Virus record (IMG/VR): IMGVR_UViG_3300044911_002386
Location: 64,001 to 128,000 of that record
Strand: one strand, 5' to 3'
From: a virus
DNA: 64,000 bases
Both the position numbers and the translations under genes were made by a program. Positions 20,990-49,678 of this stretch are shown in pieces; position 1 is the first letter of the stretch; each line of letters opens with the position of its first letter. The notes under the pieces are model-generated. The model saw only the letters and a program-made list of their open reading frames with translations. It ran no database searches and was not told where the DNA came from.

Positions 20990-21376
20990 TCAGGATGCGT
21001 TCTGCATAGCAGCGGAAGCCGCGGCTTGCAGCGTCAGAACAGCATTGGCAATCGCCGGCTGCTCTGCCGCCACGTCAGCGGCCCCCTTGAAAGCGGCCAC
21101 TTTCTCAACCGGGCCAGAAAGGCCCGCCGCGGCGAGGACGGCGTCGAGTCGCTGGTTAGCAGCCGACAGTCCCGAAACCTGCGCCGCAGCGGCCTTTTCT
21201 TGTTCCGCCGTGTAGAGCACATGTAACTTGTTCGCAATCGACCACATTTCAGAGGCCTCCTGCTCCGACCGCGGGGCAACCCCGTGGGCGGCAAGTTTCT
21301 CGAAGAAATACGGCGCAGCAAGTTCAGCCACAATCGTGGCATAAGCCTGCTCAGCCGCTTGTTTAATCTGATCCAT
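20990..21376 (-). CDS. Hypothetical head-associated protein (K-x-A motifs)
   Basis: ATG 21376 with AAGGAG RBS; IKQAA, EKAAA and EKVAA motifs. Confidence 0.75.
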   Translation of the reverse strand: MDQIKQAAEQAYATIVAELAAPYFFEKLAAHGVAPRSEQEASEMWSIANKLHVLYTAEQEKAAAAQVSGLSAANQRLDAVLAAAGLSGPVEKVAAFKGAADVAAEQPAIANAVLTLQAAASAAMQNAS

Positions 21377-21408
21377 CTCTGTGCTCCTTTGGTTAGTTTT
21401 TACACGAC

Positions 21409-22335
21409 TCACTTGAAGTCAACACGGGCCAGACCGTTCGTATGACCGAACGAACCACCCTGCGTGTTGTAGGCAAAGTACTCAAGCATGTAAGCCTCAC
21501 GACGGATGTACATCGTGGTGGGTTCCAGCTCGTAGTTCTTGCCGATAAACTTCGGCGAAGCGAACATGAACAGCGAATCGTCCGGAACGAGGTCGCGCTT
21601 GATCGTGACGATCCAGCGGCAGTTCAGGAAGTTGGTTTCAGCCCAGCCATTCTTGATGATGTCCTGGCTGAAATCGCCACCCATTTCGTCGCGGCCGAAC
21701 TTGAGAAGTTCCTTGATCGTGATGTTATTCACGAGGCAGGTCTCAACTTCAAAGTGCGACGGCGTACGGGGCATAACCTTGAGGGCGTCAACCAGCGTTT
21801 CGCGGGTGATGCCACCAGAGATTTCCTCGTACTGAACCGTTTCCGACATCGTGACTTCGGTGCCAGGCGTCGGGAGTACGGCCTTGAAAGCGGCAATAAA
21901 CTTCGAGTCTTCCTCGGCGAGCATGTCCTTGATCATGTTGTCGCTGAGCACCTGACGGATGTCGATGACATACGTACGGAGTTCGTCGACGTCCTTCACA
22001 GCACGGGGCGACACGATCCGGTCAAACATGACGCGGTAGCGCGGGCCACGGATGTAAAAGTTGATCGGGAGTGTCGCAAACGGAAGCGACACAGCCGCCG
22101 GGGAATCGGGCTCCTTGTCCACAACCTTGACGGGCTTGTCAGTGTCAACCTGACGGTCGAGCTCGTCGTTGGTGATGGTCAGCGGCGGCATAATCCGCCG
22201 GTAGAACCCGTCTTCACGCATCTTGGTGCGCGTGAAGTCGTTAACAGCATCAATGGCCTGCTTCTGCATGCCGGGGGTATCAAGCTGTTCAAACAGCGTC
22301 TCGTTGAGCAGTTGAACTTCTTGCTGAGTGGGCAT
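21409..22335 (-). CDS. Major capsid protein (HK97-fold, putative)
   Basis: 308 aa, GGAGG RBS, very strong codon bias. FTRTKMREDGFYRRIMPP...EEDSKF...GSFGHTNGLARVDF pattern. Order protease-scaffold-decoration-MCP. Confidence 0.85.
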   Translation of the reverse strand: MPTQQEVQLLNETLFEQLDTPGMQKQAIDAVNDFTRTKMREDGFYRRIMPPLTITNDELDRQVDTDKPVKVVDKEPDSPAAVSLPFATLPINFYIRGPRYRVMFDRIVSPRAVKDVDELRTYVIDIRQVLSDNMIKDMLAEEDSKFIAAFKAVLPTPGTEVTMSETVQYEEISGGITRETLVDALKVMPRTPSHFEVETCLVNNITIKELLKFGRDEMGGDFSQDIIKNGWAETNFLNCRWIVTIKRDLVPDDSLFMFASPKFIGKNYELEPTTMYIRREAYMLEYFAYNTQGGSFGHTNGLARVDFK

Positions 22336-22354
22336 CGTTTGGAACCTCCATGTT

Positions 22355-22385
22355 CCTTAGTTAGTTAGTTAATTAGTTAGTTAAG
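22355..22385. repeat. (TTAG)n / (CTAA)n microsatellite upstream of the MCP RBS
   Basis: ttagttagttagttaattagttagttaa. Confidence 0.8.
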
Positions 22386-22392
22386 GGTTAGA

Positions 22393-22959
22393 TCACGGAT
22401 CGATCGTCGCCGCGGTACCAGCCGGCAGCCAGACGCACCAGAACGAGAGCGACTGCACGTTGTTATGGTTCTTCTTCTTACCGCTCGACACTACGCCGCA
22501 AACCGGGTTCACGTACTGAACCACGGACGCATTTGTAAGCACACCGCCTGTGGCGGCATTGGAGTTGCTGGCAGTCGCCGTGAGGAGATCGCCAGGAACG
22601 TAAGTTCGCGACGAATCAAACTCAGTCGACGAGATCTCGTAGCCACCAGTAGCCACCAGGCCCGACAACTTGCCCGTCGGCGAAATCGCCTTGTGCATGA
22701 AGTTGTTCGCAGCCGTCTGGCCGGGGTTGCTTACGTCAGCGTCTTCCGAACCGTTTAACAGGAAAATAGAAACACCAGTAGCGTGGCAGCCGGGACGGAA
22801 GTTACCGTCGGCATCGACGTGCACAACGCGACCACGCGGTACGGCAAACGTAACCACGTTAGAAGCAGCGAGCTTGGCGTCGTAATCGAGCGACGCCATA
22901 TCGAACCAGCCCTTCTTTACGTCAAGGCCGTGTTCAAACATCAGATCGGGAGCAGGCAT
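22393..22959 (-). CDS. Capsid decoration / cement protein (putative)
   Basis: 188 aa beta-rich, directly upstream of the MCP; GGAGG RBS; Y.PGDLLTA motif of beta-tulip-like decoration proteins. Confidence 0.6.
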   Translation of the reverse strand: MPAPDLMFEHGLDVKKGWFDMASLDYDAKLAASNVVTFAVPRGRVVHVDADGNFRPGCHATGVSIFLLNGSEDADVSNPGQTAANNFMHKAISPTGKLSGLVATGGYEISSTEFDSSRTYVPGDLLTATASNSNAATGGVLTNASVVQYVNPVCGVVSSGKKKNHNNVQSLSFWCVWLPAGTAATIDP

Positions 22960-23020
22960 TGTTAGACCTCCATGTCTTTGTCAATTTGGGACGTTGTATC
23001 CCGGGGTTTCGTTATCGAGC

Positions 23021-23446
23021 TCAGGCTGTGGGCGGATTCAAACCAAGGCCCGTGAACAACTTCACGTCAGAAGCCTTGAGGCGACCATCGCGGGCACCCA
23101 CATACCCGCTCGTCAGGCTGCCCGCAGGGTCATAACCGGCAGTCTTTGTAGCGACCGGCGTGCCGAGACGGGCCAACTCAGCGGCGTTTTTATGCGTCGC
23201 TAACTTGATGACCAGTTCCATTGTGCGAGCCGGGTCACTTAAGGCGGCGGCAAGCGCTTCCTTCTGGTGCGGCTCGATGCGCTCGTTGTCCACGCAAGCC
23301 TGAACGGCTTCGGGAATAAGACGGGCGACCTTTTCAGTTTGCTCGTCCCGCTCCTGCAGTACCGCAGCAGCCTTCGTCATCGCCGCATCGGAGTAACCGA
23401 TGTAGTCGATGATGTTTTGAACAAGCGCGTTATTGTTTTTCGACAT
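23021..23446 (-). CDS. Hypothetical head protein / scaffold-like
   Basis: 141 aa helical, GGAGG RBS; TKAA, EKVA and TKTAG motifs. Confidence 0.7.
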   Translation of the reverse strand: MSKNNNALVQNIIDYIGYSDAAMTKAAAVLQERDEQTEKVARLIPEAVQACVDNERIEPHQKEALAAALSDPARTMELVIKLATHKNAAELARLGTPVATKTAGYDPAGSLTSGYVGARDGRLKASDVKLFTGLGLNPPTA

Positions 23447-23465
23447 TAGAAAACCTCCGTGTATA

Positions 23466-24854
23466 TCAACGGTTTACGAGTTCGATGACGTGCTGCTTCA
23501 TGATGTCCCGAAGTTGCCGAGACCGCTTGGTGCGGGCCTCTTTGACCTGGAACTTACCAGCACGTTTAAAATTCATTACAGCAGCACCAATGGACCGCAG
23601 TTCGCTGGCTCGCTTGGCAGCGGCCATCTTGGGTGCCATGCCAGCGGCTTCCGGCGGCATACCAGCGGCTTCCGGCGGCATACCAGCGGCTTCCGGCGGC
23701 ATTCCGCCTGCAGCACCACCGCCCTCGCCGCCAGCAATGGCCTCAAGCAGCGCTTCCGGCGGAATGCCGAGTTCTTCCAGCGCCATAGCCAGTTCTTGTA
23801 CAGCCTCGTCTTCCGAAGGGCCAGCACCTTCCATGCCGGCGCCTTCCATGCCAGCACCACCAGCCGCAGCCGGATCGCCACCCTCAGCACCGAGCATTTC
23901 TTCCAGGCCGGCCGGAGCCGCACCGGAACCAACGTCAGCCGGGGCACTGTGATCCTCACCTTCCGACGCTTCCTCTGTCGGGTCCGCGGCGGCCTGCTTT
24001 GAACTTAAAAAACCCATGAACAGGTCGGCCATTTCGTCAGCCTCGCGGAGAGTGTTCGCGCACACCTCGCGCACCGAAGCCTCGGCCGCGGCTTTGTCCA
24101 TCCCAAAGTGTGCGGCTAACTCATAGCCCGCCTTAAACGCAGCCGCTTTCTCGTCGCCAGCGTCGGACTTTTCTTCCTTCTCATCACCGGCGTCGGACTT
24201 CTCGTCGCTGTCTTCGCTGCCGGCTTCGGAACCGGCTTCGGCCTTGCCGCTGCGGAGCGCAGCGAGATCCGAGCCGTCGATCTTGCCGTTGTCATTAACG
24301 TCTAACTTTTTTTGGCCGCCTATTAGGTGGTCGTCAGACTTCTTTGTTAACTTGTCCGTGCCAAAGTTGATAAGGTTCGCGAGGATGTCGTTGCCGAGGT
24401 TACCGCAGTGATTGCGTGCTTCCTTGAACGAGGCCGACGAGTACTTCTCGCCGTCGTTGGTCTTGGCGGGATGCGATGTGCCCGGGTCATCCTTCGTGCC
24501 CTTGAAATCCTTTTCGGCAGCGGGATCTTCGCCGGTCGACTTGGCATTTGTATTGATGTTTAACTGCACTTCGTTCTGCCGACCCTCTTGCGACATTTCC
24601 GGAGTGTTGTCTACAGCTAACGCACCCTGCTGCTTCTTGATGTCGGTCTCGTACTCGGAAGCACGCGCACCGGTGTCAGCATTCTGCACACTGTTATCAA
24701 CGCTGGTCGTCGGGTGCGAAGAGGCGCCCTGATAGCCGCCCGGATCAGAAGGCGTGGGGCCAGCTACTTTTTCAGCAGCGGCTTTTGTGCTCTGCGAAAT
24801 TTCGTCAGCAAGAGCATTGAGTTGAGCGAAAAGGGAACGTTGCATCCGTGCCAT
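23466..24854 (-). CDS. Prohead scaffolding protein (putative)
   Basis: 462 aa acidic low-complexity protein directly after the protease; contains an EF-hand-like loop DVNDNGKIDGSD and GMPPEAA repeats. Confidence 0.6.
   Translation of the reverse strand: MARMQRSLFAQLNALADEISQSTKAAAEKVAGPTPSDPGGYQGASSHPTTSVDNSVQNADTGARASEYETDIKKQQGALAVDNTPEMSQEGRQNEVQLNINTNAKSTGEDPAAEKDFKGTKDDPGTSHPAKTNDGEKYSSASFKEARNHCGNLGNDILANLINFGTDKLTKKSDDHLIGGQKKLDVNDNGKIDGSDLAALRSGKAEAGSEAGSEDSDEKSDAGDEKEEKSDAGDEKAAAFKAGYELAAHFGMDKAAAEASVREVCANTLREADEMADLFMGFLSSKQAAADPTEEASEGEDHSAPADVGSGAAPAGLEEMLGAEGGDPAAAGGAGMEGAGMEGAGPSEDEAVQELAMALEELGIPPEALLEAIAGGEGGGAAGGMPPEAAGMPPEAAGMPPEAAGMAPKMAAAKRASELRSIGAAVMNFKRAGKFQVKEARTKRSRQLRDIMKQHVIELVNR
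23641..23702. repeat. 21-bp tandem repeat x3 (GMPPEAA)
   Basis: ccagcggcttccggcggcata repeated. Confidence 0.9.
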
Positions 24855-24897
24855 TGTTATCTCCTTTGGGGCCTAATCGTTGTGCGATTAGTTTCCG

Positions 24898-26352
24898 TTA
24901 CATGATGTAATTTTGCAGTACACAGTGGTTTGCTGTCAACAAGTTATTTCCGTATTTATCACAAATGGCGGCGAAAGCGGCAATCTTATACAACGCGTAA
25001 TGTTGCGCAAGTGCTGTTTCTGCGTTCCCAGTTGCTTGTTTCTCACACGGAATGTTATCTAACCGAGCGTTACGAATCGCGGCTAAGTATGCACGCTTTT
25101 CGATGTTACTCGGTAATACGCTGTGGGTTTGCGCTACTTTCTCTGCCCACACCCTAACAGCAGCCGGAGCCACACTCGAAGGGTAGTAAACATTATTCTC
25201 CAAAAGCGTCGCCATGTCTAGATCATTTGCAACTTTTGTAAAAATATTGGGCAGGGCTTTCGCAACAGCCCCGACGAGGTCCTCACTTGCTGTCTTTAAA
25301 GTCAGTGCTAAAAAGTCGCGCAGCGGCAGGATAACACCGGCGTCAGCCAGCCCACGCAACACGTCTGACATTTTAACAAATGAGCACGCACTTACATCAA
25401 TAGGCGGCTGTACTTCCGGCGATGAAGCCAGGGCAAGTTTGGTCCACTCAGCACTGTTCTGGGTGGCTTCGGCTTGGACAAGTAAGTTTAAAGCCTCTAA
25501 CTGTGCGTGAGCCCGCTTGCTTGAGTTACCATCTAAGTTAAATCCAATCGGTGCGGTGACGCCAAGGTGCTCAGCCAATTCAGCGCCAGAAAGAATGGCT
25601 GTACCAGCGGCTTTTTCAAGCCGGCCAGATACATACGCAATTCGGTCAGCCGGGCGAAACACGTGAGAAATGTCAAAAAACGCACACTTCGTATTGTCGG
25701 CGTGTAGCACGTGACCGTCCGCCAGCACCCGACCGATGTTGTGCTTTAAACCGCCCGCCTTGCAGTGCCCGCCGTTCTCTGGTGAGTCGCAATACTCAGC
25801 CCGGGTACGAGCCGTGTTGCCGCAAGAAGAGCATTTGTCGAAAGGAATTTTGCAGGCCATCGATACCGGGATCTCTTTCCCGTTGGCCAGTTTCTCAAGT
25901 TCTTTGTCAGCAATTAAACCGCCATTGCGATCGGCCGCTTCTTTTGTGCCATTTAACGCGCAGACAAGTTCAATTCGGTGCATGGGCTCGTGGTAGGCAC
26001 TGGCCTTCACGATGCCGAATGACTTGGCCGGATTCTTGTTGGCGTGGTCCCGATAGAACCTGGCTAACTTTTCAAACGTGTTGTGATCTTTACGGCATGT
26101 GTCTCGTGTAAAGCCGTCGCCGTTGCGGTTCGGGCCGTAGTCCTCTGTGGCACCAATCGCGATCATGTGCACAGGAACTTCATCTTTTGCAAACTTAATG
26201 TTTTCAAGTTTATGGGCAAACTCCGCACCGGCTCGTTTAACGAATGCCTGCTTGTCGGCACCGATGAGGCCGCGGCTTGAGATCTTAATAATCTCCGCGA
26301 CTGGCTCACTAAAGTCTTGAGCGTGCGGCTGAATAACTTTGATCATGCTCAT
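24898..26352 (-). CDS. Prohead maturation protease (HK97/U9-like serine protease)
   Basis: NRNGDGF...FYRDHAN (His)...IPVSMAC (Ser) followed by CSSCGN..C and FFDISHVFRPADRIA; first gene of the head operon. Confidence 0.75.
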   Translation of the reverse strand: MSMIKVIQPHAQDFSEPVAEIIKISSRGLIGADKQAFVKRAGAEFAHKLENIKFAKDEVPVHMIAIGATEDYGPNRNGDGFTRDTCRKDHNTFEKLARFYRDHANKNPAKSFGIVKASAYHEPMHRIELVCALNGTKEAADRNGGLIADKELEKLANGKEIPVSMACKIPFDKCSSCGNTARTRAEYCDSPENGGHCKAGGLKHNIGRVLADGHVLHADNTKCAFFDISHVFRPADRIAYVSGRLEKAAGTAILSGAELAEHLGVTAPIGFNLDGNSSKRAHAQLEALNLLVQAEATQNSAEWTKLALASSPEVQPPIDVSACSFVKMSDVLRGLADAGVILPLRDFLALTLKTASEDLVGAVAKALPNIFTKVANDLDMATLLENNVYYPSSVAPAAVRVWAEKVAQTHSVLPSNIEKRAYLAAIRNARLDNIPCEKQATGNAETALAQHYALYKIAAFAAICDKYGNNLLTANHCVLQNYIM

Positions 26353-26376
26353 TTGCTAGTTCCTTATCCGTTAATT

Positions 26377-27366
26377 TTATCGTGCATTTACGGCGCCACG
26401 GCTGCCGGCGTAACCAAAACGACTAGCCTGTTGGCGCGCTTGTTCTGCCGCAGTGTTTTGTATCCACGCTATCGTTTTTGCCATATCGCGGTCGTTGTTC
26501 AAATAAAACTCTTCCCCGCCCGGAAACTCACGAATCCTATTAATCATTTGTAGCAAGTTAGTTTTGTCTTGCGGGTTTGTCATCGCAATCGGCTGGCCGC
26601 TAGGTGTTTTCGTGTAGATATCTAAATCGTCTTTTGGCAATAAACCAGTCTCCCGCAGTTCAGCCATGCTCGTTGCCGGTTTTCCAGTTTTACGTTCATA
26701 CGACTCTAATAAACCACGAAAACGGTCTTGATACTGCGTCGTTCGCCCGGTTAATTTCTTATACCACGGCATTTTGCCGGTTTGCACCCAATTTAAAAAA
26801 TCACTCCCGCCGGCGTTTGGCGACACGCCGTCAGCTAACGGATGCCGAGACGGGCCCTGTTTGTATAAATCAGTTTCCATGTGGGGTTTAATAGCGTCTG
26901 GCCTGTAGCCCTTATACGGCACAACGCTTACTGTGCCGTCAGCGTTTGTTGTCAGCGCAACTTGCTCGGTCGGCTTATCGGCTACGCGCATTGGCGTCGT
27001 TTCTACTCGCTGTACGTCTTTTGGTTTGACAGCGGCAGGCGCAGCCGACGGTGTAATTTTAGCCGTCGGGGTAGTTGACGGCGTCGGGGCAGCGCTGTTA
27101 CCGCCGTTCATAAAGTGGGCGAGGCCAAGGCCGCCAAGGCCGCCGAGCGTGCCGTAATAAAGGGCGTTGCGTTTCTTATTGCGGCCCTGCGTCGCACCAA
27201 TGAGTGCGCCGATACCCGCCCCGCCAAGGCCGCCAAGTAAATAACGCCCGGCGTCACCACCGACGAACGCGGTTTTAATTTGCATTAAGTTTGATGGCAG
27301 TGTTTCGCCAGTAACGGCGCTGCGGGCTAACTGACCTGCCAATTTTTCAAAGTCGTTGTTGTTCAT
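26377..27366 (-). CDS. Glycine-zipper putative internal virion protein
   Basis: EKLA and IKTA motifs, then LLGGLGGAGIGALIGA...GTLGGLGGLGLA hydrophobic hairpin. Confidence 0.7.
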   Translation of the reverse strand: MNNNDFEKLAGQLARSAVTGETLPSNLMQIKTAFVGGDAGRYLLGGLGGAGIGALIGATQGRNKKRNALYYGTLGGLGGLGLAHFMNGGNSAAPTPSTTPTAKITPSAAPAAVKPKDVQRVETTPMRVADKPTEQVALTTNADGTVSVVPYKGYRPDAIKPHMETDLYKQGPSRHPLADGVSPNAGGSDFLNWVQTGKMPWYKKLTGRTTQYQDRFRGLLESYERKTGKPATSMAELRETGLLPKDDLDIYTKTPSGQPIAMTNPQDKTNLLQMINRIREFPGGEEFYLNNDRDMAKTIAWIQNTAAEQARQQASRFGYAGSRGAVNAR

Positions 27367-27369
27367 GTC

Positions 27370-28980
27370 TTACGCAAGTTCTTCTTGGAGTTTGCGGGCC
27401 GAAAGCATTGTTTGATCCCGCTCGGCTTTGAGTTTATCCATTTCAAGTAATTGTTTCGCGTCAAAATCGGCAAGTTGTCCGGCCTCTAAACGTTTCCGAA
27501 GCATGGCACGTAAGACAGCCGGGGACTGCACGACGTTTGGCGCCGCGTCGGCTACTTCATTAAACGCCAATGCTACTTCTTGAGGGCTATAACCAGAGAT
27601 GACGTCGTCATTAAGCATCAAGTCGTGAAGCGTGGCTTGAGCGCGAATATTTTTAAGCGTCAGTTCGTGGTCGGGCGAGGAGATCTCTTTCAACATCTTT
27701 AAACCAATGTCGCGCGGCTCTTTGTCTAAGCCAAGAATGCTTTTAGCCATCCCGGCTGGCGAGGCAGCACCAGCAAGACCAATTTGTTCACCAACAGTGT
27801 TGACTGGCCGGTTAGCACTCTCAAAAAACGTTTGTAAGTTTTTTTCGTAATTGCTGGCACCACCCTTGCCGCCACCGCCACCACCACGATTACCGCCGCC
27901 ACCGCCGCCACGGTTGCCCTGCGGCTTCTTCTCTTCCGGCTTTTCGGGCTTAGGAGATGGCTTTGCCGGCGGTGCAGGCGGTGCAGGCGGAGCAGGCGGG
28001 TTAATGCCGAATAATGTCGCCGCAAGACTCGGCGGTAATCCTGGCCCGGCAGATACAGGAAAATGCCCGCCACGCGGGCCTGCTGCTTGCTTTAAAGTTA
28101 CGCCGTTAGAGAAGTCTACCGGCGCCTGCAGCACCGAACCTGTAAGAAAAGTGGCTACTTTCTTATTACTAATTACTGGCGTCTTTTTTTTTAAGTCCGC
28201 GCTCGCTTTGACATATTCTTCCGTCAGGATAACAACATTTTGTACGCGGGCGTACAGGGGGTTATCGCCAAAGTGGTTGTTGTTCGTTGCCGCTTGCTTT
28301 TTAAACTGAGGATAAACTTCGGCCACCTTGTGCAGCACCGAAACACCCTCGTCGCCGAAACGTAAGCCAACCTGACGAACAGCGTCGGCGAACGACATGT
28401 TTCCCGGAGTGCGGAAATACTCAACTACGCCGTCAAGCGCCGCGGCGGCTTTAGAGTACGCAGCCGTAGCGATGCGGCGCCGCTCCTCGTCAGCCAACTG
28501 CTCGGCACGTTTGACGCTATAGGCCCGCTCAGCGGCGAATTGCTCGTCACGCGGATACGGCACATATGTCTTTGCCGGTAATGCCACTTGAGCCGCTGCG
28601 GCCTTCTCCTGCTCAGCCACGCGGCGAGCGAGCATGCCGGCAGGCGAAACGGCGTAGTCCGTAGATACAATTTCTTGCCGCACGATTTCTGCCGACGTTT
28701 TAACAGCCTTGGGGTACAGAGCATCTAAAACCGTGGGGGCGTCAGCCAGTTGGAAATCAGCCGACTTTTCAGTCGTGTTTTCGCCTTGTTCGCGTTGCTT
28801 GGTGGTGCGGCCTGTGTTGTACGCATGCACCATAAGGTTAATATGCCCCGCGGGAATATCGGCGGCGGCGGCACTCTTAATGATTGCAGCGTTTGGCGAT
28901 AGCCCTTCGTTGACTAATGCTGCAGCTTTTTCAATCGCAGCAATTAACTTTTGTTCGGCTTCTTTGCTCAATGTCTGCAT
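27370..28980 (-). CDS. Putative internal virion protein (536 aa)
   Basis: Long ORF coupled to its neighbours; many K-x-A/S motifs (EKAA, IKSA, EKSA, VKTS, KKQA, KKVA, LKQA); Pro/Gly linkers. Confidence 0.75.
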   Translation of the reverse strand: MQTLSKEAEQKLIAAIEKAAALVNEGLSPNAAIIKSAAAADIPAGHINLMVHAYNTGRTTKQREQGENTTEKSADFQLADAPTVLDALYPKAVKTSAEIVRQEIVSTDYAVSPAGMLARRVAEQEKAAAAQVALPAKTYVPYPRDEQFAAERAYSVKRAEQLADEERRRIATAAYSKAAAALDGVVEYFRTPGNMSFADAVRQVGLRFGDEGVSVLHKVAEVYPQFKKQAATNNNHFGDNPLYARVQNVVILTEEYVKASADLKKKTPVISNKKVATFLTGSVLQAPVDFSNGVTLKQAAGPRGGHFPVSAGPGLPPSLAATLFGINPPAPPAPPAPPAKPSPKPEKPEEKKPQGNRGGGGGGNRGGGGGGKGGASNYEKNLQTFFESANRPVNTVGEQIGLAGAASPAGMAKSILGLDKEPRDIGLKMLKEISSPDHELTLKNIRAQATLHDLMLNDDVISGYSPQEVALAFNEVADAAPNVVQSPAVLRAMLRKRLEAGQLADFDAKQLLEMDKLKAERDQTMLSARKLQEELA

Positions 28981-28982
28981 TG

Positions 28983-29912
28983 TTATTCTCCCGGGAATCG
29001 CAGATTTTCGATCAGGGGCTGATTTTCTAGTTTACCACCAGTCGCCACAATGATCATTTCGCTGTTGTTTAATTCTGCCGCGCCACTATCAAAGGGTACC
29101 ATTTTTATAGCTTCAGAATCCAGTTTCGTCCCAACGCGGAATGGCAGGGCCGTCAACATAGCCCCGATATTCTCCACAATGGATACCTGCGCTTTAGTAG
29201 CGTTTTCTGTCGTTCTTTCAATTTCAACATATTTGGCGAACGAGTCGATAAGCGGTAATTGTGTATGCGTGTTGGCCTGCACGGTAAGCGTCGCCAGTGC
29301 CGCCTTGTACTTCATGGCACTAATTGCAAAATCCTGGAAAAAGCCAGAGACGTTCTCAGGGTTTTGCGGGCGGCTGACCGGGCAAAATCTGTTAATGACG
29401 GCATCTAGCACCATCGGGCCGCCGTGATAACCCATTAACTTCCAGAGCAAGTCGTAGTGTCGTTCCTGCAATCCGCGAGTAACGGCATCACCCATCACGA
29501 CATTCACAACATAATCGGTGTGGGCCATCTTTTCGCGAACATCAAAAAATACGTTGATATACGCGTTAATAATCTCTGGCGTCGTGCCGACCTTAGCAGC
29601 AATCTCGGCGTCCGTTTCTCCTGCTAATACACGGGCTTCCACGGCCCACTTTGACGGTGCTTTATCCTCCACCCACAGTGAGTGGGCCCAGAACAATTCC
29701 GGGTCGCGGAGATGCAGGGCGTACAATGCTTGCGGCCTGCTGCCAGCTAACTCAAAATGCCGTTTCAGCCGGCTAGCACGGCGTACCCACTTAAAGCCTT
29801 CCGCACCGTCTAATTTGCGAGACGCCTTGGGCCCGCCGGCATCAATATTTACCGCCCGCAGCCACCGCCAACTAGGCGACCGTCGAGGGTTATCGCGAAG
29901 GGCGTTTAGCAT
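28983..29912 (-). CDS. Hypothetical protein (309 aa)
   Basis: Translationally coupled ORF; HTH-like segment DAEIAAKVGTTPEII. Confidence 0.75.
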   Translation of the reverse strand: MLNALRDNPRRSPSWRWLRAVNIDAGGPKASRKLDGAEGFKWVRRASRLKRHFELAGSRPQALYALHLRDPELFWAHSLWVEDKAPSKWAVEARVLAGETDAEIAAKVGTTPEIINAYINVFFDVREKMAHTDYVVNVVMGDAVTRGLQERHYDLLWKLMGYHGGPMVLDAVINRFCPVSRPQNPENVSGFFQDFAISAMKYKAALATLTVQANTHTQLPLIDSFAKYVEIERTTENATKAQVSIVENIGAMLTALPFRVGTKLDSEAIKMVPFDSGAAELNNSEMIIVATGGKLENQPLIENLRFPGE

Positions 29913-30295
29913 TAGCGCAGCGTCGGCGTGTCTACGGTGACAGAGAACACAAAGTTTTTAACTGCCGCCGTCGTAATTTTAAGATACAGGTAGCGCTGCG
30001 GATTAGTCGGCGAGCCGTCACGATTGAGATACGACACGTTTAAGTCGTTTTTAAAAGCCGCAGCCTGGTCAAACGTCAGCACTTTGAATGTGTCTGCCGG
30101 TAACGCGTTGTTCGGCGCCTTATCCTGCTTGCTCGAATACAGCGTGGCAGTGAAGTTACCTGTTGCACCACCAGCCGCCTCGACGAGGTTGTAGCCTTTT
30201 AAAACGCCACGATGCGGCATTGGAATGGCCACCGTCGTTGCCGACCCGGCATTCGTCGTAAACTCTTTACTGCCTGACCAAACTGTGCTGGGCAT
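29912..30295 (-). CDS. Hypothetical beta-sandwich protein
   Basis: 127 aa, beta-rich, RYLYLKI near the C-terminus; coupled to neighbours. Confidence 0.7.
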   Translation of the reverse strand: MPSTVWSGSKEFTTNAGSATTVAIPMPHRGVLKGYNLVEAAGGATGNFTATLYSSKQDKAPNNALPADTFKVLTFDQAAAFKNDLNVSYLNRDGSPTNPQRYLYLKITTAAVKNFVFSVTVDTPTLR

Positions 30296-30305
30296 AGTTC
30301 ACCTA

Positions 30306-32711
30306 TTAAGAGTTGGCAACGGGACCTAAGTCGACGTCGCTGTTGGCTTCTTCTGGATACGGCTCGATTGTCTTTTGCTTCAGGAACAAGATGACGTCGC
30401 CAAGCATCTCAAATGCGTTACGCAGCGAATCTTCCAGTTCCGGCATGTCGGCCTTGCCATAACGATCGGCAAACCGGTCGCCATGCCAATAAAACATAAA
30501 CAAGATGCGCCCCAGTTTGTCGAGGCCCTTTGTCAGTTCACCCATGTAGCGATCTACCATGCCGTCGTCGCGTACAGTTCGCAACATGGAGCCAATCATC
30601 GCTGTGTCAAATACTTCGCGTTGACCGCTTTGAGCGGCGTCGATTACCGAGCGTAAATCTTTTTGATCTAACTCAGTGTTCGGGTTGTAAACGCTGCGAT
30701 CCGTCTGACTAGCAGCCATGCCCGACACAGGCATACCGACGTCAATACCGAGTTGTGTTGGAACGCTCGTGCCCATGATGCTTTCGCCGCCCATGACCGC
30801 GCCGGGATCACTCGGAGCGTTCGGGGCACTGTTGATCATCATCGGGCTGCCGTACGGCTCGGCATATTTTACGCGGCACTCAAACTTTCGTTTATCAGCC
30901 GCTTGTTTCAGAATGTCGCGGGCGGCTTCTTCTCGTAAACCGTGCTGCCGTACTAACGACACCAGTGCCTGCTTTTCAGACAGTTCTTTTTCAACGAGTT
31001 GTTTTTGCCCGCTGTGAATCTCTACAGCGTGACCGTTATTTGTCACAGTTAAAGACGATGTTTTTTGCATCAACTCCATCTGGGCGTCAAGCAGGTTGCC
31101 CGGCATCAGCGGCGGATCTTTGCTTTCGCCGCAACCGCATGCACCCTGCCCTTCAGCCGAATCGACGTCGTCTTCGCCCGGCTCGCACTTCAGCATCTTG
31201 AACCCTTCCGGCACAAAGATGTCGCCCATGCTGGCACGCAGCGACGAACCCTTTTTACCGTTTAAATGCAGCCGCACGCCGTCGCGGTACTTGTCGTAAT
31301 TAAGCGGGTCAGAGTAGCAACACGGAGAAATGCTGCCCTTGGGCGGAAACTTTGTGTAATCCTCGAGATGCACTTCGTACACCGTCGAGCCATTTGTTTC
31401 GCCATATTCGCGAAGGCTCCGAACCGGGGCGGTAGTGTCGCCGCGCTTGTTAAGCAGCATTACGCGCGAGCGACCGGACGGAAGGCTTTTGGCTTCCGGA
31501 AGACCGTCATACCATTTGTCAAACTCTTCGCCCTCTACGCGGGAAAGTGCAAAAACATGGTCAGCCCGTGTGTTAATCCAGTCGGCTTTACCGTCAATGC
31601 GAACGACCGTGACGAAGTTAGACCGCTTGGCGGCACCCATCGGGAATACGGCCACGTAGCAGCGTTCAATATTGCCCGGCTTGACGAGGATTTCGTACAG
31701 ACCGCTCTCGGTCGGATTAAACAGCCGCTTCTCGACTTGGATATGGTAGGGAATCGAAACGTTGTCGCGATCCCGCTTGTCGAGAATCAGCACGCCGTCC
31801 CGCAAAAGTTTTTCCTGGTCTTCTTCTGTGTGACCCGGCGGTAACTTAGTCTGCACCGTCGTATCGAGCGTAATGACTTCAAGCGACTTTTCAGCCGCTG
31901 GCGTTTTGGGAGCCTCAGACAACACGCTCGCCACTTTTGTGCGGCTTACGCGAGCCGACGCCTGTGCTACGGCCTCTTTGACGATATTTAAACCGTGGAA
32001 CGAGTCGATGGCCTCGGCGAGTTCGGGGGCTTTCTTGCAGCTGTTAACCAGCGTGCTTAACATTTGCATGCTGGCTTCTTTTAAGAACGCCGGCAGGTTG
32101 ATCGCACTGCCAAGTTCGGCAAAAGCCTGGGCGGTATTCATCGTGGCCGATTTCGCAAATGCCGGCATGGCCGCAGTCATCATCTCTTTGAGCGTGGGCT
32201 GCGCCGAGCCGAACTTTGACGGGCTGCGGGAAAGTTGCGTGAAGTCCGGCTGCCGTTGGCCAAGATTCGACAGATTTCGATCGACGCCGTTGCCAAGGAT
32301 GTTCGGCTTTCGATTGATTAAATAGTTGATCCAGTTTTCTTTGAGCGGTACGAACATATCCTGATTTTTGATGTACAGGAGTTCGTGCCCTTTCAAGTCG
32401 CCGTTTAAAAAGAATACCGGGGCGTAAAGCCACTGGGCACCGACTTTAAAAGCAAATACGCCAACGGCTTTTGTGTTCTCGCGGTTGCGGTCCAATAATT
32501 GGAAACCGACTTCGTGATCAAGCAATTTGGGCGCTGAGTCACGCAAGTAAGCGTGGGCCAGGTTAGAAAACGCCTGTTCAAAAGAAGTGTCATCGCCACG
32601 GCCGCCAATTTCGGCCTGTTTGACTTGGCTGCGGTCGTGAGACCTAACTACCTTCAGCCAGTGCTGCCACGACGCTTCTTTTTTGCTTTTGTTGTACACG
32701 GCCACCTCCAT
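30306..32711 (-). CDS. Large putative virion protein (801 aa)
   Basis: Long ORF after the RNAP genes; K-x-A/S motifs (VKQAE, AKSA, LKEAS, TKVAS, QKTSS, VKYAE). May start at a GTG a few codons in (GGAGG). Confidence 0.75.
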   Translation of the reverse strand: MEVAVYNKSKKEASWQHWLKVVRSHDRSQVKQAEIGGRGDDTSFEQAFSNLAHAYLRDSAPKLLDHEVGFQLLDRNRENTKAVGVFAFKVGAQWLYAPVFFLNGDLKGHELLYIKNQDMFVPLKENWINYLINRKPNILGNGVDRNLSNLGQRQPDFTQLSRSPSKFGSAQPTLKEMMTAAMPAFAKSATMNTAQAFAELGSAINLPAFLKEASMQMLSTLVNSCKKAPELAEAIDSFHGLNIVKEAVAQASARVSRTKVASVLSEAPKTPAAEKSLEVITLDTTVQTKLPPGHTEEDQEKLLRDGVLILDKRDRDNVSIPYHIQVEKRLFNPTESGLYEILVKPGNIERCYVAVFPMGAAKRSNFVTVVRIDGKADWINTRADHVFALSRVEGEEFDKWYDGLPEAKSLPSGRSRVMLLNKRGDTTAPVRSLREYGETNGSTVYEVHLEDYTKFPPKGSISPCCYSDPLNYDKYRDGVRLHLNGKKGSSLRASMGDIFVPEGFKMLKCEPGEDDVDSAEGQGACGCGESKDPPLMPGNLLDAQMELMQKTSSLTVTNNGHAVEIHSGQKQLVEKELSEKQALVSLVRQHGLREEAARDILKQAADKRKFECRVKYAEPYGSPMMINSAPNAPSDPGAVMGGESIMGTSVPTQLGIDVGMPVSGMAASQTDRSVYNPNTELDQKDLRSVIDAAQSGQREVFDTAMIGSMLRTVRDDGMVDRYMGELTKGLDKLGRILFMFYWHGDRFADRYGKADMPELEDSLRNAFEMLGDVILFLKQKTIEPYPEEANSDVDLGPVANS

Positions 32712-47504: not shown

Positions 47505-47746
47505 GTTAACACTCGAAATAACTGCACGGCAAAAGCCAGAATTACGACAATCCAGGCAATCAGACCGCTGAGAGCTAAAAAAACAATAAACGACGTCAGA
47601 GTCAATGCCGGGAACAATTTCTGAATAGGTATTTTACGAAACAGCAGCAATGCACGCATCCATTGCGGCGACGGCTTGTCCGGCGTTACGTCTGGTGTCG
47701 GCGAAGGTTTCGGCTTTGGCTGCCAGGGCCAGTTTATTTTGCTCAT
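47501..47746 (-). CDS. Small membrane protein
   Basis: Pro-rich N-terminus, long hydrophobic C-terminus; coupled to neighbours. Confidence 0.65.
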   Translation of the reverse strand: MSKINWPWQPKPKPSPTPDVTPDKPSPQWMRALLLFRKIPIQKLFPALTLTSFIVFLALSGLIAWIVVILAFAVQLFRVLT

Positions 47747-49590
47747 CGCGGTGTTCCTAAAAAGTTGCCGCCAAACCGCTCGATTGTTTGATCTACGATT
47801 GATGGCTGCGGCATATTGCCGTGAAAAGCCTGCAGGGCTAATTGATGGCGATAAGCCGGGTTAATAAACGCCTGATACGACTGATTATTCCGCTGGGCTT
47901 GCAGCATCCAGTCGCCCCGTCTTTTAATTTCAGCCATGTGATTACGGATGTTCTCAAACACAGGCTTCTGCATGTCATACGCGAAAGGACCGCGGCCAAA
48001 TACCGAGTTCCGCAGTTCATTTAAATACACGCTGTTCGCCGCGGCTTTTACGCCAGCCGGAATAACGGTCGGATCTATGTGGAGCCTGAAATTCGTGGGC
48101 CGGTGGGTAATGCCTTTGTATTTCGGCTTAGCGTCGTCGATTACCCAGTCATCAGGCGATTGTGCCATCAAGCGCCGAATGATCGCGGCCTTGTGGTCGT
48201 AGCGCTTGTTATCCGAATGTTCTTTTGCCGCTAAAAGGTCTTTGAGGATTTCGGGCTGCGCGGCTTTCTCTATTTTTTCTTGCTTGTCGTAGTAGGCCGC
48301 GTCTTCGGACAAGTGATCCTTGGCAATTTCTTTGGCGATTTGATCGTTGTCGGTGTGCTCGTGCTCATGCCGTGTTCCCCTAGTTAATTCTTTTTTCAAA
48401 AACTTATTATCGGCCTTGCCGTCGGCTTCGCCACCAGATAACAGATCCGCCTGTTTCTGCTGGCTTTGCAGTTTTTGCAGTAGGGCCGAAAGGTCTTGCC
48501 CTGGTTTGTATTTCAGCGTGCCCGGAAGTTTGTCATACGCCGCAATCGTGGGCGTGTGAAACTTATAGACAAGATCGGCAATACGCTTTTTTTCTTGCTC
48601 GACGTCCGGCGTCCATTTTTTTGCGGGGTCTTTTTCGTACCGCTGTTTTGTGCGGCTAAGGCGTTGTTCGTACGCCTGCTCGACAGGCGGGTTTACATGC
48701 ACCCTTTTGTATTTGCTTAAAATCTCAGGCGGAAGATACGACAGCTGCACACCCTCGACCACGGCGGGCCCGTCGTTTTTCTCCAACGTTTGCATAGCCG
48801 TTTGCCGCATCAGTGCCCGAAAGTCTTGTTCTTTGGGCGAGCCGGCTGGCAAATGATTATCCGGCGTATTGTCGTCAAGAAACTTTTGAAAATTGGGATC
48901 TTGATCGACCGATACGCGCGGCAGTTTTAATTTTTCGGCTAGGGCTTTTGACAGCGTAGATTTGCCGGCCCCAGAATGCCCGCTTACGAGCACAACCTGG
49001 CTCGGGTCCGCGGCAGCGGCTTTGCGTACCTCATTGTCGCCGAGCACGTTCTTTTTTCGTACTGCGACCGTGATGTGAAACGGATGGCCCTTCGGCAGCG
49101 GCGACAATCCGTAACTCTTGCGAATTGCGGTTAAGCCGGGGCTCGAGACTTGCACGGCCCAAACTTTGCTTACGCCGCTAATGCCTCGGACGGTTATTTC
49201 TTTTAACGGCCCAAGTGTGTAGCCAAAGTTGTGGCCACGCTCATTGATCTTATCGGCACCCACCGACTGCACTTCGTCGGCAGTCATCACAGAAATATGG
49301 GCGTTCAAAAGATCTGCGTCAACGTTGGGCACATTCATCGCGCCGGCCAACGGCAGTTCTGCCCCGGGCGCCACCAAGGCGTCAAATAATCCACGGACTA
49401 ACGCGTTTGGCACAGATAGCAGAAGCCATCCGCTTTTTGCCAGATACAAGCGGCCAGATAATGAATGATTTGCAGCCGTCTTTGTTCCCGTGCGGCCAAG
49501 CCAGCCAATGGCGTTGCCAAGCTGGTACACGGTTTGATCTTCCAACGATGTTTCCCACAACAGCGGATCAAGACTGAATAAGCTGTTCAT
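47743..49590 (-). CDS. Multidomain protein: 2H phosphoesterase + P-loop kinase + DUF5661-like + unknown modules
   Basis: HIS (aa98) and HIT (aa172) 2H motifs; GHSGAGKST P-loop; G..HEHEHT....AKEIAKDHL.E...YY motif. Confidence 0.8.
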   Translation of the reverse strand: MNSLFSLDPLLWETSLEDQTVYQLGNAIGWLGRTGTKTAANHSLSGRLYLAKSGWLLLSVPNALVRGLFDALVAPGAELPLAGAMNVPNVDADLLNAHISVMTADEVQSVGADKINERGHNFGYTLGPLKEITVRGISGVSKVWAVQVSSPGLTAIRKSYGLSPLPKGHPFHITVAVRKKNVLGDNEVRKAAAADPSQVVLVSGHSGAGKSTLSKALAEKLKLPRVSVDQDPNFQKFLDDNTPDNHLPAGSPKEQDFRALMRQTAMQTLEKNDGPAVVEGVQLSYLPPEILSKYKRVHVNPPVEQAYEQRLSRTKQRYEKDPAKKWTPDVEQEKKRIADLVYKFHTPTIAAYDKLPGTLKYKPGQDLSALLQKLQSQQKQADLLSGGEADGKADNKFLKKELTRGTRHEHEHTDNDQIAKEIAKDHLSEDAAYYDKQEKIEKAAQPEILKDLLAAKEHSDNKRYDHKAAIIRRLMAQSPDDWVIDDAKPKYKGITHRPTNFRLHIDPTVIPAGVKAAANSVYLNELRNSVFGRGPFAYDMQKPVFENIRNHMAEIKRRGDWMLQAQRNNQSYQAFINPAYRHQLALQAFHGNMPQPSIVDQTIERFGGNFLGTPR

Positions 49591-49606
49591 GGGTTTTCCT
49601 TGTACG

Positions 49607-49678
49607 CTGCTCGGCTAGGATTCGAACCTAGAACCATCGCATTAACAGTGCGCCGCGCTACCGTTGCGCCACCGAGCA
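49607..49678 (-). tRNA. trnN: tRNA-Asn (GTT)
   Basis: TGCTCGG/CCGAGCA acceptor stem, D-arm, anticodon loop CTGTTAA, T-arm CTAGG-TTCGAAT-CCTAG, discriminator G; CCA not encoded. Confidence 0.93.

Follow-up and report, generated by a model that had tools for sequence, protein, structure and literature searches.

The Locus and Its Phage

The virus record to which this DNA belongs occurs in lake metagenomes and corresponds to a large, uncultured phage. It comprises 167,811 bases, is estimated to be 82% complete, and includes the window (the whole stretch of 64,000 nucleotides that was analyzed) as one of its parts; complete relatives have ~200 kb. The window encodes an HK97-fold capsid protein and an extended run of head, tail and accessory genes on one strand, among them the gene for a 615-aa protein described in this article. 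The phage also encodes beta and beta-prime pieces of an RNA polymerase, and its likeness to phages with multi-subunit RNA polymerases (mReC, PMC7481178) lies in homologous genes. The closest cultured phages are Salmonella phage Arash (OQ632216) and the Vibrio phages D69, D148 and D181 (28-29% identity in the capsid protein). Arash and D69 have homologues of the capsid protein, protease, terminase, RNA polymerase subunits and helicase of the lake phage. A promoter scan gave nothing exceeding shuffled sequences. The features of the locus are the following:

47743..49590, minus strand: modular polyprotein gene, 615 aa, with a leader, 2H, kinase, DUF5661 and two unassigned modules
49474..49590, minus strand: leader, aa 1-39, ending in Lys-x-Ala 37-39 (49474-49482), with a predicted helix at 20-33 and an aromatic-x-x-Gly motif
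49024..49473, minus strand: 2H phosphoesterase module, aa 40-189, family 2H-SAK, with His98-x-Ser (49291-49299) and His172-x-Thr (49069-49077)
49015..49023, minus strand: Lys-x-Ala 190-192, joint after 2H, the most disordered linker (pLDDT<50 at 179-194)
48457..49014, minus strand: P-loop kinase module, aa 193-378, optional, with a predicted NMP/shikimate/gluconate-kinase fold
48448..48456, minus strand: Lys-x-Ala 379-381, joint after the kinase, present at 9/10 kinase-DUF5661 joints
48268..48447, minus strand: DUF5661-like helical module, aa 382-441 (Pfam DUF5661 match below cut-off)
48259..48267, minus strand: Lys-x-Ala 442-444, the least conserved joint (K-x-A in 57/94, K-x-A/G/S in 87/94)
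48049..48258, minus strand: 70-aa module, aa 445-514, two helices and three strands with conserved His/Trp/Asp, containing the non-boundary Lys-x-Ala 467-469
48040..48048, minus strand: Lys-x-Ala 515-517, joint before the last module (92/94)
47746..48039, minus strand: helical C-terminal module, aa 518-615, no family assigned
49606..49678, minus strand: tRNA-Asn(GTT), 15 nt upstream of the 615-aa gene and on the same strand

A sequence-only reading had described this open reading frame (47743-49590, minus strand, 615 aa) as a chain of enzyme modules, and the elements that it listed were all recovered: HIS at 98, HIT at 172, the P-loop at 204-212, the DUF5661-like motif, and Lys-x-Ala (K-x-A) at 37, 190, 379, 442 and 515. 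A sixth site, KAA 467-469, had been omitted; it falls in a helix predicted for the 70-aa module, and only 9 of 36 homologues keep it. Pfam assigned 2H-SAK to residues 96-182 (E 2.7e-10), AAA_18 to 200-321 and, below the cut-off, DUF5661 to 405-442. In the DUF5661-like module Glu409, His412, Asp425 and His426 are invariant, a pattern that suggests a possible metal site. The 70-aa module (aa 445-514) recurs in 27 of 118 distant 2H proteins, and an atlas search with it gave no match.

The AlphaFold model of the full-length protein (mean pLDDT 78, pTM 0.37) shows a dip of local confidence at each of the five listed K-x-A sites and depicts the protein as folded modules, or beads, without a fixed arrangement. 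Fold searches with this model (pdb, pdb_via_wide, viral) returned kinases only. Ten cluster members of 556-615 aa retain the same K-x-A sites, and contigs from an independent lake run span the gene as two overlapping pieces, one of them unbroken across 2H and kinase; the fusion is therefore not an assembly artefact. PADLOC matches were dismissed as P-loop or Nudix noise.

Modules Are Exchanged at Lys-x-Ala

The protein contains six K-x-A triplets compared with 4.9 expected from its composition, no excess over chance, and the observed/expected ratio across 43 homologues is 1.18. The signal resides in the placement of the triplet at module boundaries, not in its number. When boundaries were set without using the motif, from the kinase fold (residues 193-381 by structural alignment alone, which sits between two K-x-A sites) and from conserved cores, the placement of K-x-A there exceeded chance. 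A K-x-A triplet is not in itself enough to mark a joint, since it also occurs in helices of the protease domain described below and inside the 70-aa module.

A homologue search found 447 proteins, and module strings were read in the best 120 of them. These share a constant frame, leader-2H-DUF5661-70aa-100aa, into which variable modules are inserted (kinase, three Nudix types, a Cys-rich peptide, a helical module and others), giving 20 different strings. K-x-A occurs at most 14 aa upstream of the optional modules in 86 of 92 distinct flanks (shuffle mean 26, max 41), flanks that are not independent because many represent one inherited site after 2H, and at most 14 aa downstream in 79 of 95 (shuffle mean 36, max 50). 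Most cases carry K-x-A in 31 of the 33 junction types. The exchange of modules at K-x-A among homologues, which had been suggested as a check on the polyprotein reading, is thus borne out in these best 120 homologues.

The pattern extends to distant relatives. A profile search yielded 894 2H-SAK-family representatives at 50% identity, the best 144 of which were examined. In these representatives, which share <50% identity, K-x-A precedes the 2H core in 112/135 (shuffle mean 30, max 51). It follows the core in 101/117 (shuffle mean 37, max 53), and Gly, Ala or Ser comes directly after the triplet in 103/114. The neighbours that follow 2H vary and include pyrophosphatase, Nudix, C39 peptidase, LigD phosphoesterase, DNA ligase and GNAT modules. 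A looser alignment-end test on distant proteins, which is noisy, gave only a 1.85-fold enrichment (46/218 vs 25 and 53/225 vs 29).

The motif could be a by-product of Lys/Ala-rich helical linkers or of a DNA recombination hot spot, the protein being an ordinary cytoplasmic fusion. The chance-level count within the protein agrees with such an origin, as does the frequency of K-A and K-x-x-A in the flanks, and one deletion did occur at a microhomology: a relative with 87-89% DNA identity lost the kinase at such a short stretch inside the P-loop, keeping site 190 and losing site 379. Against it, composition-keeping shuffles fall far short of the observed placement. In addition, codons at the K-x-A sites vary synonymously, with 28 different 9-mers encoding the two sites that flank 2H, which indicates selection on the peptide; on this ground a DNA-repeat origin of the joints was rejected. 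The distribution of the motif over the genome, described in the next section, adds to these objections, and an accidental origin is considered highly improbable.

Lys-x-Ala in Head Genes and the Prohead Protease

The same triplet is frequent in the head-assembly genes of the window, where three features are relevant:

20990..32711, minus strand: head-assembly gene block with six K-x-A-rich genes
24898..26352, minus strand: predicted prohead protease, aa ~16-240, with a long extension at the C terminus; the protease domain closes with K-x-A at 247
21409..22335, minus strand: major capsid protein, whose only K-x-A is at 25-27; HK97-fold model match, homologue of the Arash major capsid protein

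The six head-block genes contain 58 K-x-A compared with 24.4 expected (2.4-fold), a contrast whose significance is optimistic because the set was picked after the counts were seen. Counts were 23 vs 34.2 expected in 23 tail/baseplate genes and 43 vs 49.3 in 38 left-arm genes, and neither the reversed triplet A-x-K nor R-x-A was enriched. The same head-gene contrast was found in 40-49 homologues per gene, with observed/expected ratios of 2.0-3.3. The head genes of Arash and D69 are likewise rich in K-x-A, and in the lake phage, Arash, D69 and phage G the enrichment is confined to head genes.

The protease gene is located ~21 kb from the 615-aa gene. By structure comparison its product resembles T4 gp21 (5jbl; VIA Z 9.6, rmsd 3.3, 141 aligned residues), followed by the VZV protease (Z 7.5) and a herpesvirus protease (5.4), with unrelated folds at <=5.0; Foldseek alone gave a weak match (E 0.085). 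His62, His103, Ser164 and Asp227 are invariant. The K-x-A at 247 is kept in 46/47 homologues, and Arash gp222 and phage G gp19 likewise have a site at the end of the protease domain, the place at which SPN3US gp245 is known to cleave itself (PMC10052503). Several other K-x-A lie within helices of the protease domain, so that the triplet is not solely a linker mark; by analogy, these sites would fit a self-destruction of the enzyme such as that of T4 gp21, which destroys itself. Some relatives of the protease carry intein-looking insertions beside the Ser.

In the major capsid protein, Lys and Ala of the K-x-A at 25-27 are fixed in 49/49 homologues with five different middle residues, and the capsid proteins of Arash and D69 (28-29% identity) have K-x-A at the same place. 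A large residue comes next in this case, and the site could be structural.

Altogether, the polyprotein reading gains from module swapping at K-x-A, from the tie of the motif to head-assembly genes and from the presence of a prohead protease in the window; the K-x-A inside one module counts against it. A related possibility is that the protein is packaged without being cut internally, K-x-A acting as a binding or addressing tag (or with only the leader removed) and the chain being delivered as one polyvalent protein. Many K-x-A do lie in helices of folded domains, nearly all mapped cuts in SPN3US remove propeptides while ~80% of its head proteins are uncut (PMC10052503), and some polyvalent proteins travel unprocessed (PMC5512222). 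Delivery of an uncut chain accounts poorly for the retention of the tag at every internal joint whichever modules meet, for the small residue that follows it, as in assemblin sites, and for its position where the protease domain ends, which recurs in three distant groups of phages. For these reasons it is regarded as quite unlikely, and processing by the head protease is preferred.

The Leader and a Possible Link to the Virion

The leader (aa 1-39) is a candidate capsid-addressing propeptide, as judged from its sequence. An aromatic-x-x-Gly followed 4, 7 or 10 residues on by K-x-A is present in 58 of 111 distant leaders (shuffles 7.6, max 15). Six proteins of the genome carry this motif (1.3 expected), including a scaffold-like protein and two other N-termini; in related loci a loose form occurs mainly in the 2H polyprotein family. 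Part of the leader helix may be a piece of the 2H domain, given that an atlas match begins at residue 28.

The helicase gene (record positions 125663-129196) also encodes a K-x-A-joined chain, and one part of this chain is the helical module that in relatives is found within the 2H polyprotein. Its homologue in Arash, gp217, is abundant in virions according to a protein list that also includes probable contaminants, and RNA polymerase is the most abundant virion protein of this phage (PMC10585845). RNA polymerase is not K-x-A-enriched in the lake phage or Arash, nor is the Arash helicase; K-x-A is therefore not needed for packaging. The Arash virion table gives 86.6% coverage for the capsid protein, contains no termini and has some rows at 100% from two peptides, and nothing was drawn from coverage.

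The 2H Module: Family and Possible Substrates

The module that is constant in these chains has intact catalytic motifs, His98 being invariant and His172 present in at least 90% of 40 members, and its gene is single-copy in 15 of 18 near-complete relatives. It belongs to 2H-SAK (PF22547; 41 bits, cut-off 27), which matches 40/40 close and 89/89 distant members, and the model matches a stand-alone 2H-SAK structure (TM 0.64 by match). A PDB sequence search with the 2H domain and its profile gave no real match. The lake-phage domain differs from this stand-alone form in being flanked by K-x-A and a leader. It is absent from Arash, D69 and phage G, and tblastn against cultured phages gave no match.

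The label Acb1-like, which the sequence-only reading had attached to this module, holds at the superfamily level, where the His-x-Ser/Thr pair is shared, and fails at the family level: none of 40 members matched Pfam Acb1 (PF23474) at E<=10, while T4 Acb1 scored 2.7e-60 as a control, and a profile comparison with T4 Acb1 (hhalign) gave 1% probability. No usable alignment was obtained over the aromatic cage and C-terminal lid of Acb1 (Glu141/Trp147). T4 Acb1 (gp57B, PMC9117128) resembles the module in having two His-x-Ser/Thr motifs ~70-75 residues apart within ~150 aa. It differs in being a stand-alone protein of another family by profile, whereas the lake-phage 2H is a module in a chain.

A functional Acb1 analogue that degrades the cyclic di/trinucleotides of CBASS would be a narrower claim, compatible with a head cargo. 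The shared catalytic pair (PMC9117128), the near-core, single-copy status of the gene in the lineage, partner modules that act on nucleotides, such as Nudix, and the counter-signal role proposed for 2H domains of polyvalent proteins (PMC5512222) would agree with it. Besides the profile results, no Trp-bearing lid sequence was found after the second 2H motif, and T4 Acb1 was found in infected-cell lysate and is not shown as cargo; judged from sequence, this specific activity is unlikely. The failed Acb1 profile test lowers the case for the module being Acb1, not the case that it may degrade defence nucleotides. If the protein is a cargo, its most likely task, put at somewhat less than even odds, would be to clear away nucleotide signals, or cyclic-phosphate products, that arise early in host defence, rather than to exert the specific activity of Acb1.

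The Kinase Module and the Adjacent tRNA

The modelled kinase module superimposes on gluconokinase 3t61 (VIA Z 14.0, rmsd 3.3 over 163 residues), which places it in the NMP/shikimate/gluconate class. The combination of a 2H cyclic phosphodiesterase with a 5' kinase next to a tRNA gene had raised the alternative of an RNA end-healing enzyme for tRNA repair. Both 2H motifs are intact, the P-loop kinase fold is common to polynucleotide kinases (PHROG 505, E 0.042), one atlas cluster shows 10% tRNA-ligase CPD, and the tRNA lies only 15 nt upstream. This alternative found little support in the comparison of relatives. The kinase is rare, being present in 11/120 homologues (best 120 of 447) and in 1/43 loci; it directly follows 2H in 3, and other modules often stand between the two. 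A Pnkp/Trl1-like system would call for a stable phosphodiesterase-kinase linkage. No Rnl1, Rnl2-type or RtcB ligase was found in the genome itself (82% complete) or in five relatives that are 98-100% complete, T4 serving as positive control, although a divergent ligase may have escaped this search. In polyvalent proteins, no RNA ligase was ever seen together with a 2H domain (PMC5512222). The repair could still be completed by a ligase of the host. The tRNA immediately precedes the gene in about half of 51 related loci; in the others it lies at a distance of ~4-5 kb or was not seen. With no fixed position, tRNA-Asn is a neighbour rather than a partner. That tRNA repair is the main role is thus very unlikely.

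A Probable Head Cargo Freed by the Prohead Protease

The interpretation favoured here, with a probability of about 0.7, is that the 615-aa protein is a head cargo cut after K-x-A by a gp21-like protease. The gene product would be an internal head cargo precursor, which its short helical leader would address to the assembling prohead. There, the protease of T4-gp21/assemblin fold would cut after Lys-x-Ala, the signal at which it would also process scaffold-like proteins and itself. The leader would thereby be lost and the modules released, to enter the next host along with the DNA. A tag at the end of every module allows a chain to gain, lose or rearrange single modules while the rest stay intact, as is observed in the homologues. 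The fixed member would be a catalytically intact 2H-SAK phosphodiesterase, and the optional ones (Nudix, kinase, pyrophosphatase and others) would act on nucleotides. We infer cleavage after the Ala by this protease, loading through the leader, delivery at infection and a nucleotide signal as the substrate.

Similar elements are known in other phages. The T4 internal proteins IPI-III and Alt have a capsid targeting sequence that is cut by gp21. The proteases of SPN3US and phiKZ cleave after a P3-x-P1 triplet, A-x-E for SPN3US gp245 and S/A/G-x-E for phiKZ gp175, and gp245 cuts off its own C-terminal propeptide (PMC10052503, PMC13282480). The lake phage resembles T4, phiKZ and SPN3US in having a gp21-fold protease in the head block, a triplet in scaffold-like proteins, protease and capsid protein, and a short leader that ends in the signal. 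In those phages the signal ends in Glu (in the T4 type, a hydrophobic or small residue-x-Glu), whereas in the lake phage it is Lys-x-Ala, with Ala at the presumed P1 and K-x-A, not x-x-E, at the joints. Moreover, the mapped cuts in phiKZ and SPN3US mainly remove propeptides, while the presumed lake-phage signal recurs between enzyme modules. Cleavage at K-x-A in phages was not found in the literature searched, the phage G structure work of 2020 being left aside.

Polyvalent proteins (Iyer et al., 2017, PMC5512222) are likewise strings of shuffled, unrelated domains that include 2H, are predicted to be packaged and show no link of 2H to RNA ligase. They have hub domains such as zincin metallopeptidase or MuF; neither these nor any other embedded peptidase was detected in the 615-aa protein by Pfam or PHROG, two of its modules being unassigned. 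In contrast to these proteins, the lake-phage chain would be processed in trans, with the head protease acting at a defined motif; such a mechanism was not found described in PMC5512222.

Biological Significance

The broadest form of this proposal is that a ~200-kb, RNA-polymerase-encoding lineage uses Lys-x-Ala as a plug-in code for a leader-loaded chain whose modules, freed by the protease, include a virion-delivered, non-Acb1 2H enzyme that destroys defence nucleotides before phage gene expression; that every element holds together is rather unlikely. A pre-loaded anti-signal enzyme would act earlier than those made after infection, and the 2H-SAK family (894 representatives at 50% identity) represents a large pool of candidate anti-signal enzymes. 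The cut rule can be tested in a cultured phage, since Arash has both the protease and the motif, even if it lacks the 2H gene. If it holds, a gp21-type protease specific for Lys-x-Ala would join the Glu-specific ones of T4, phiKZ and SPN3US, polyvalent proteins would gain a concrete release mechanism, and the enzymes that such phages carry into the host could be read from sequence, module by module.

Modular Architecture of the 2H Polyproteins

Optional modules without a Pfam match occur in the 2H-polyprotein homologues P0023, P0028, P0050 and P0026. A Cys-rich peptide of 25 aa, which also lacks a Pfam match, is an optional module in 38 of the best 120 of 447 homologues and resembles metallothioneins; one optional module without a Pfam match resembles acylphosphatase when judged by eye, and another is of the alpha/beta type. 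One close relative (L130:2256-3497) has lost the kinase through a deletion at a brief stretch of DNA microhomology, which joined a P-loop stub in frame to the DUF5661 module; this deletion is present in two assemblies.

K-x-A Motifs in Other Genes and in Phage G

The Lys-x-Ala triplet (K-x-A) found at the module joints also occurs in the following genes of this genome:

window:61663-63993 (genome 125663-129196), helicase gene organised as a chain with K-x-A joints, with two modules at the N-terminus
window:59136-60642, two adjacent genes with near-identical leaders ending in K-x-A
G000:37801-39009 (genome coordinates), + strand, 402-aa gene outside the head block, K-x-A 13 observed vs 3.0 expected

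The helicase homologue in the cultured Salmonella phage Arash is bare. One of the two N-terminal modules of the helicase here is common to the 2H polyproteins of relatives. In both adjacent genes the leader is followed by a common block, and the bodies are low-complexity Gly/Ala sequence. The 402-aa gene is a candidate scaffold or core protein, and Arash gp242, which has a similar start, contains 8 K-x-A (3.5 expected). Head genes of Bacillus phage G (L124:2140-11592) that are rich in K-x-A include gp11 (5 observed/2.2 expected), gp14 (5/2.3), gp19 (8/2.5) and gp21 (7/2.8); the capsid protein of this phage contains no K-x-A.

Insertions in Prohead Protease Homologues

Three prohead protease homologues (L042:4788-7382, L054:4722-7334, L049:3409-7302) carry one or two large insertions each, which adjoin the presumed catalytic Ser and a conserved Gly-x-Asn motif. 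The insertions have Cys...His-Asn ends and are apparently inteins.

Neighboring and Transcription Genes

window:51090-52124, actin-fold protein encoded by the phage, matching Pfam Volactin at E 1.9e-61
window:44829-45650, fusion of a peptidoglycan-binding domain and an M10 matrixin-like peptidase
window:32779-39925, RNA polymerase, two genes
genome 61265-62089, sigma-like gene, matching Arash gp10

The actin-fold protein lies near the 2H gene in 54 related loci. A conserved group of small membrane proteins is encoded downstream of the 2H gene; the peptidase fusion lies within this group, and together they are possibly lysis genes. The RNA polymerase is split as in Arash gp206 and gp216.
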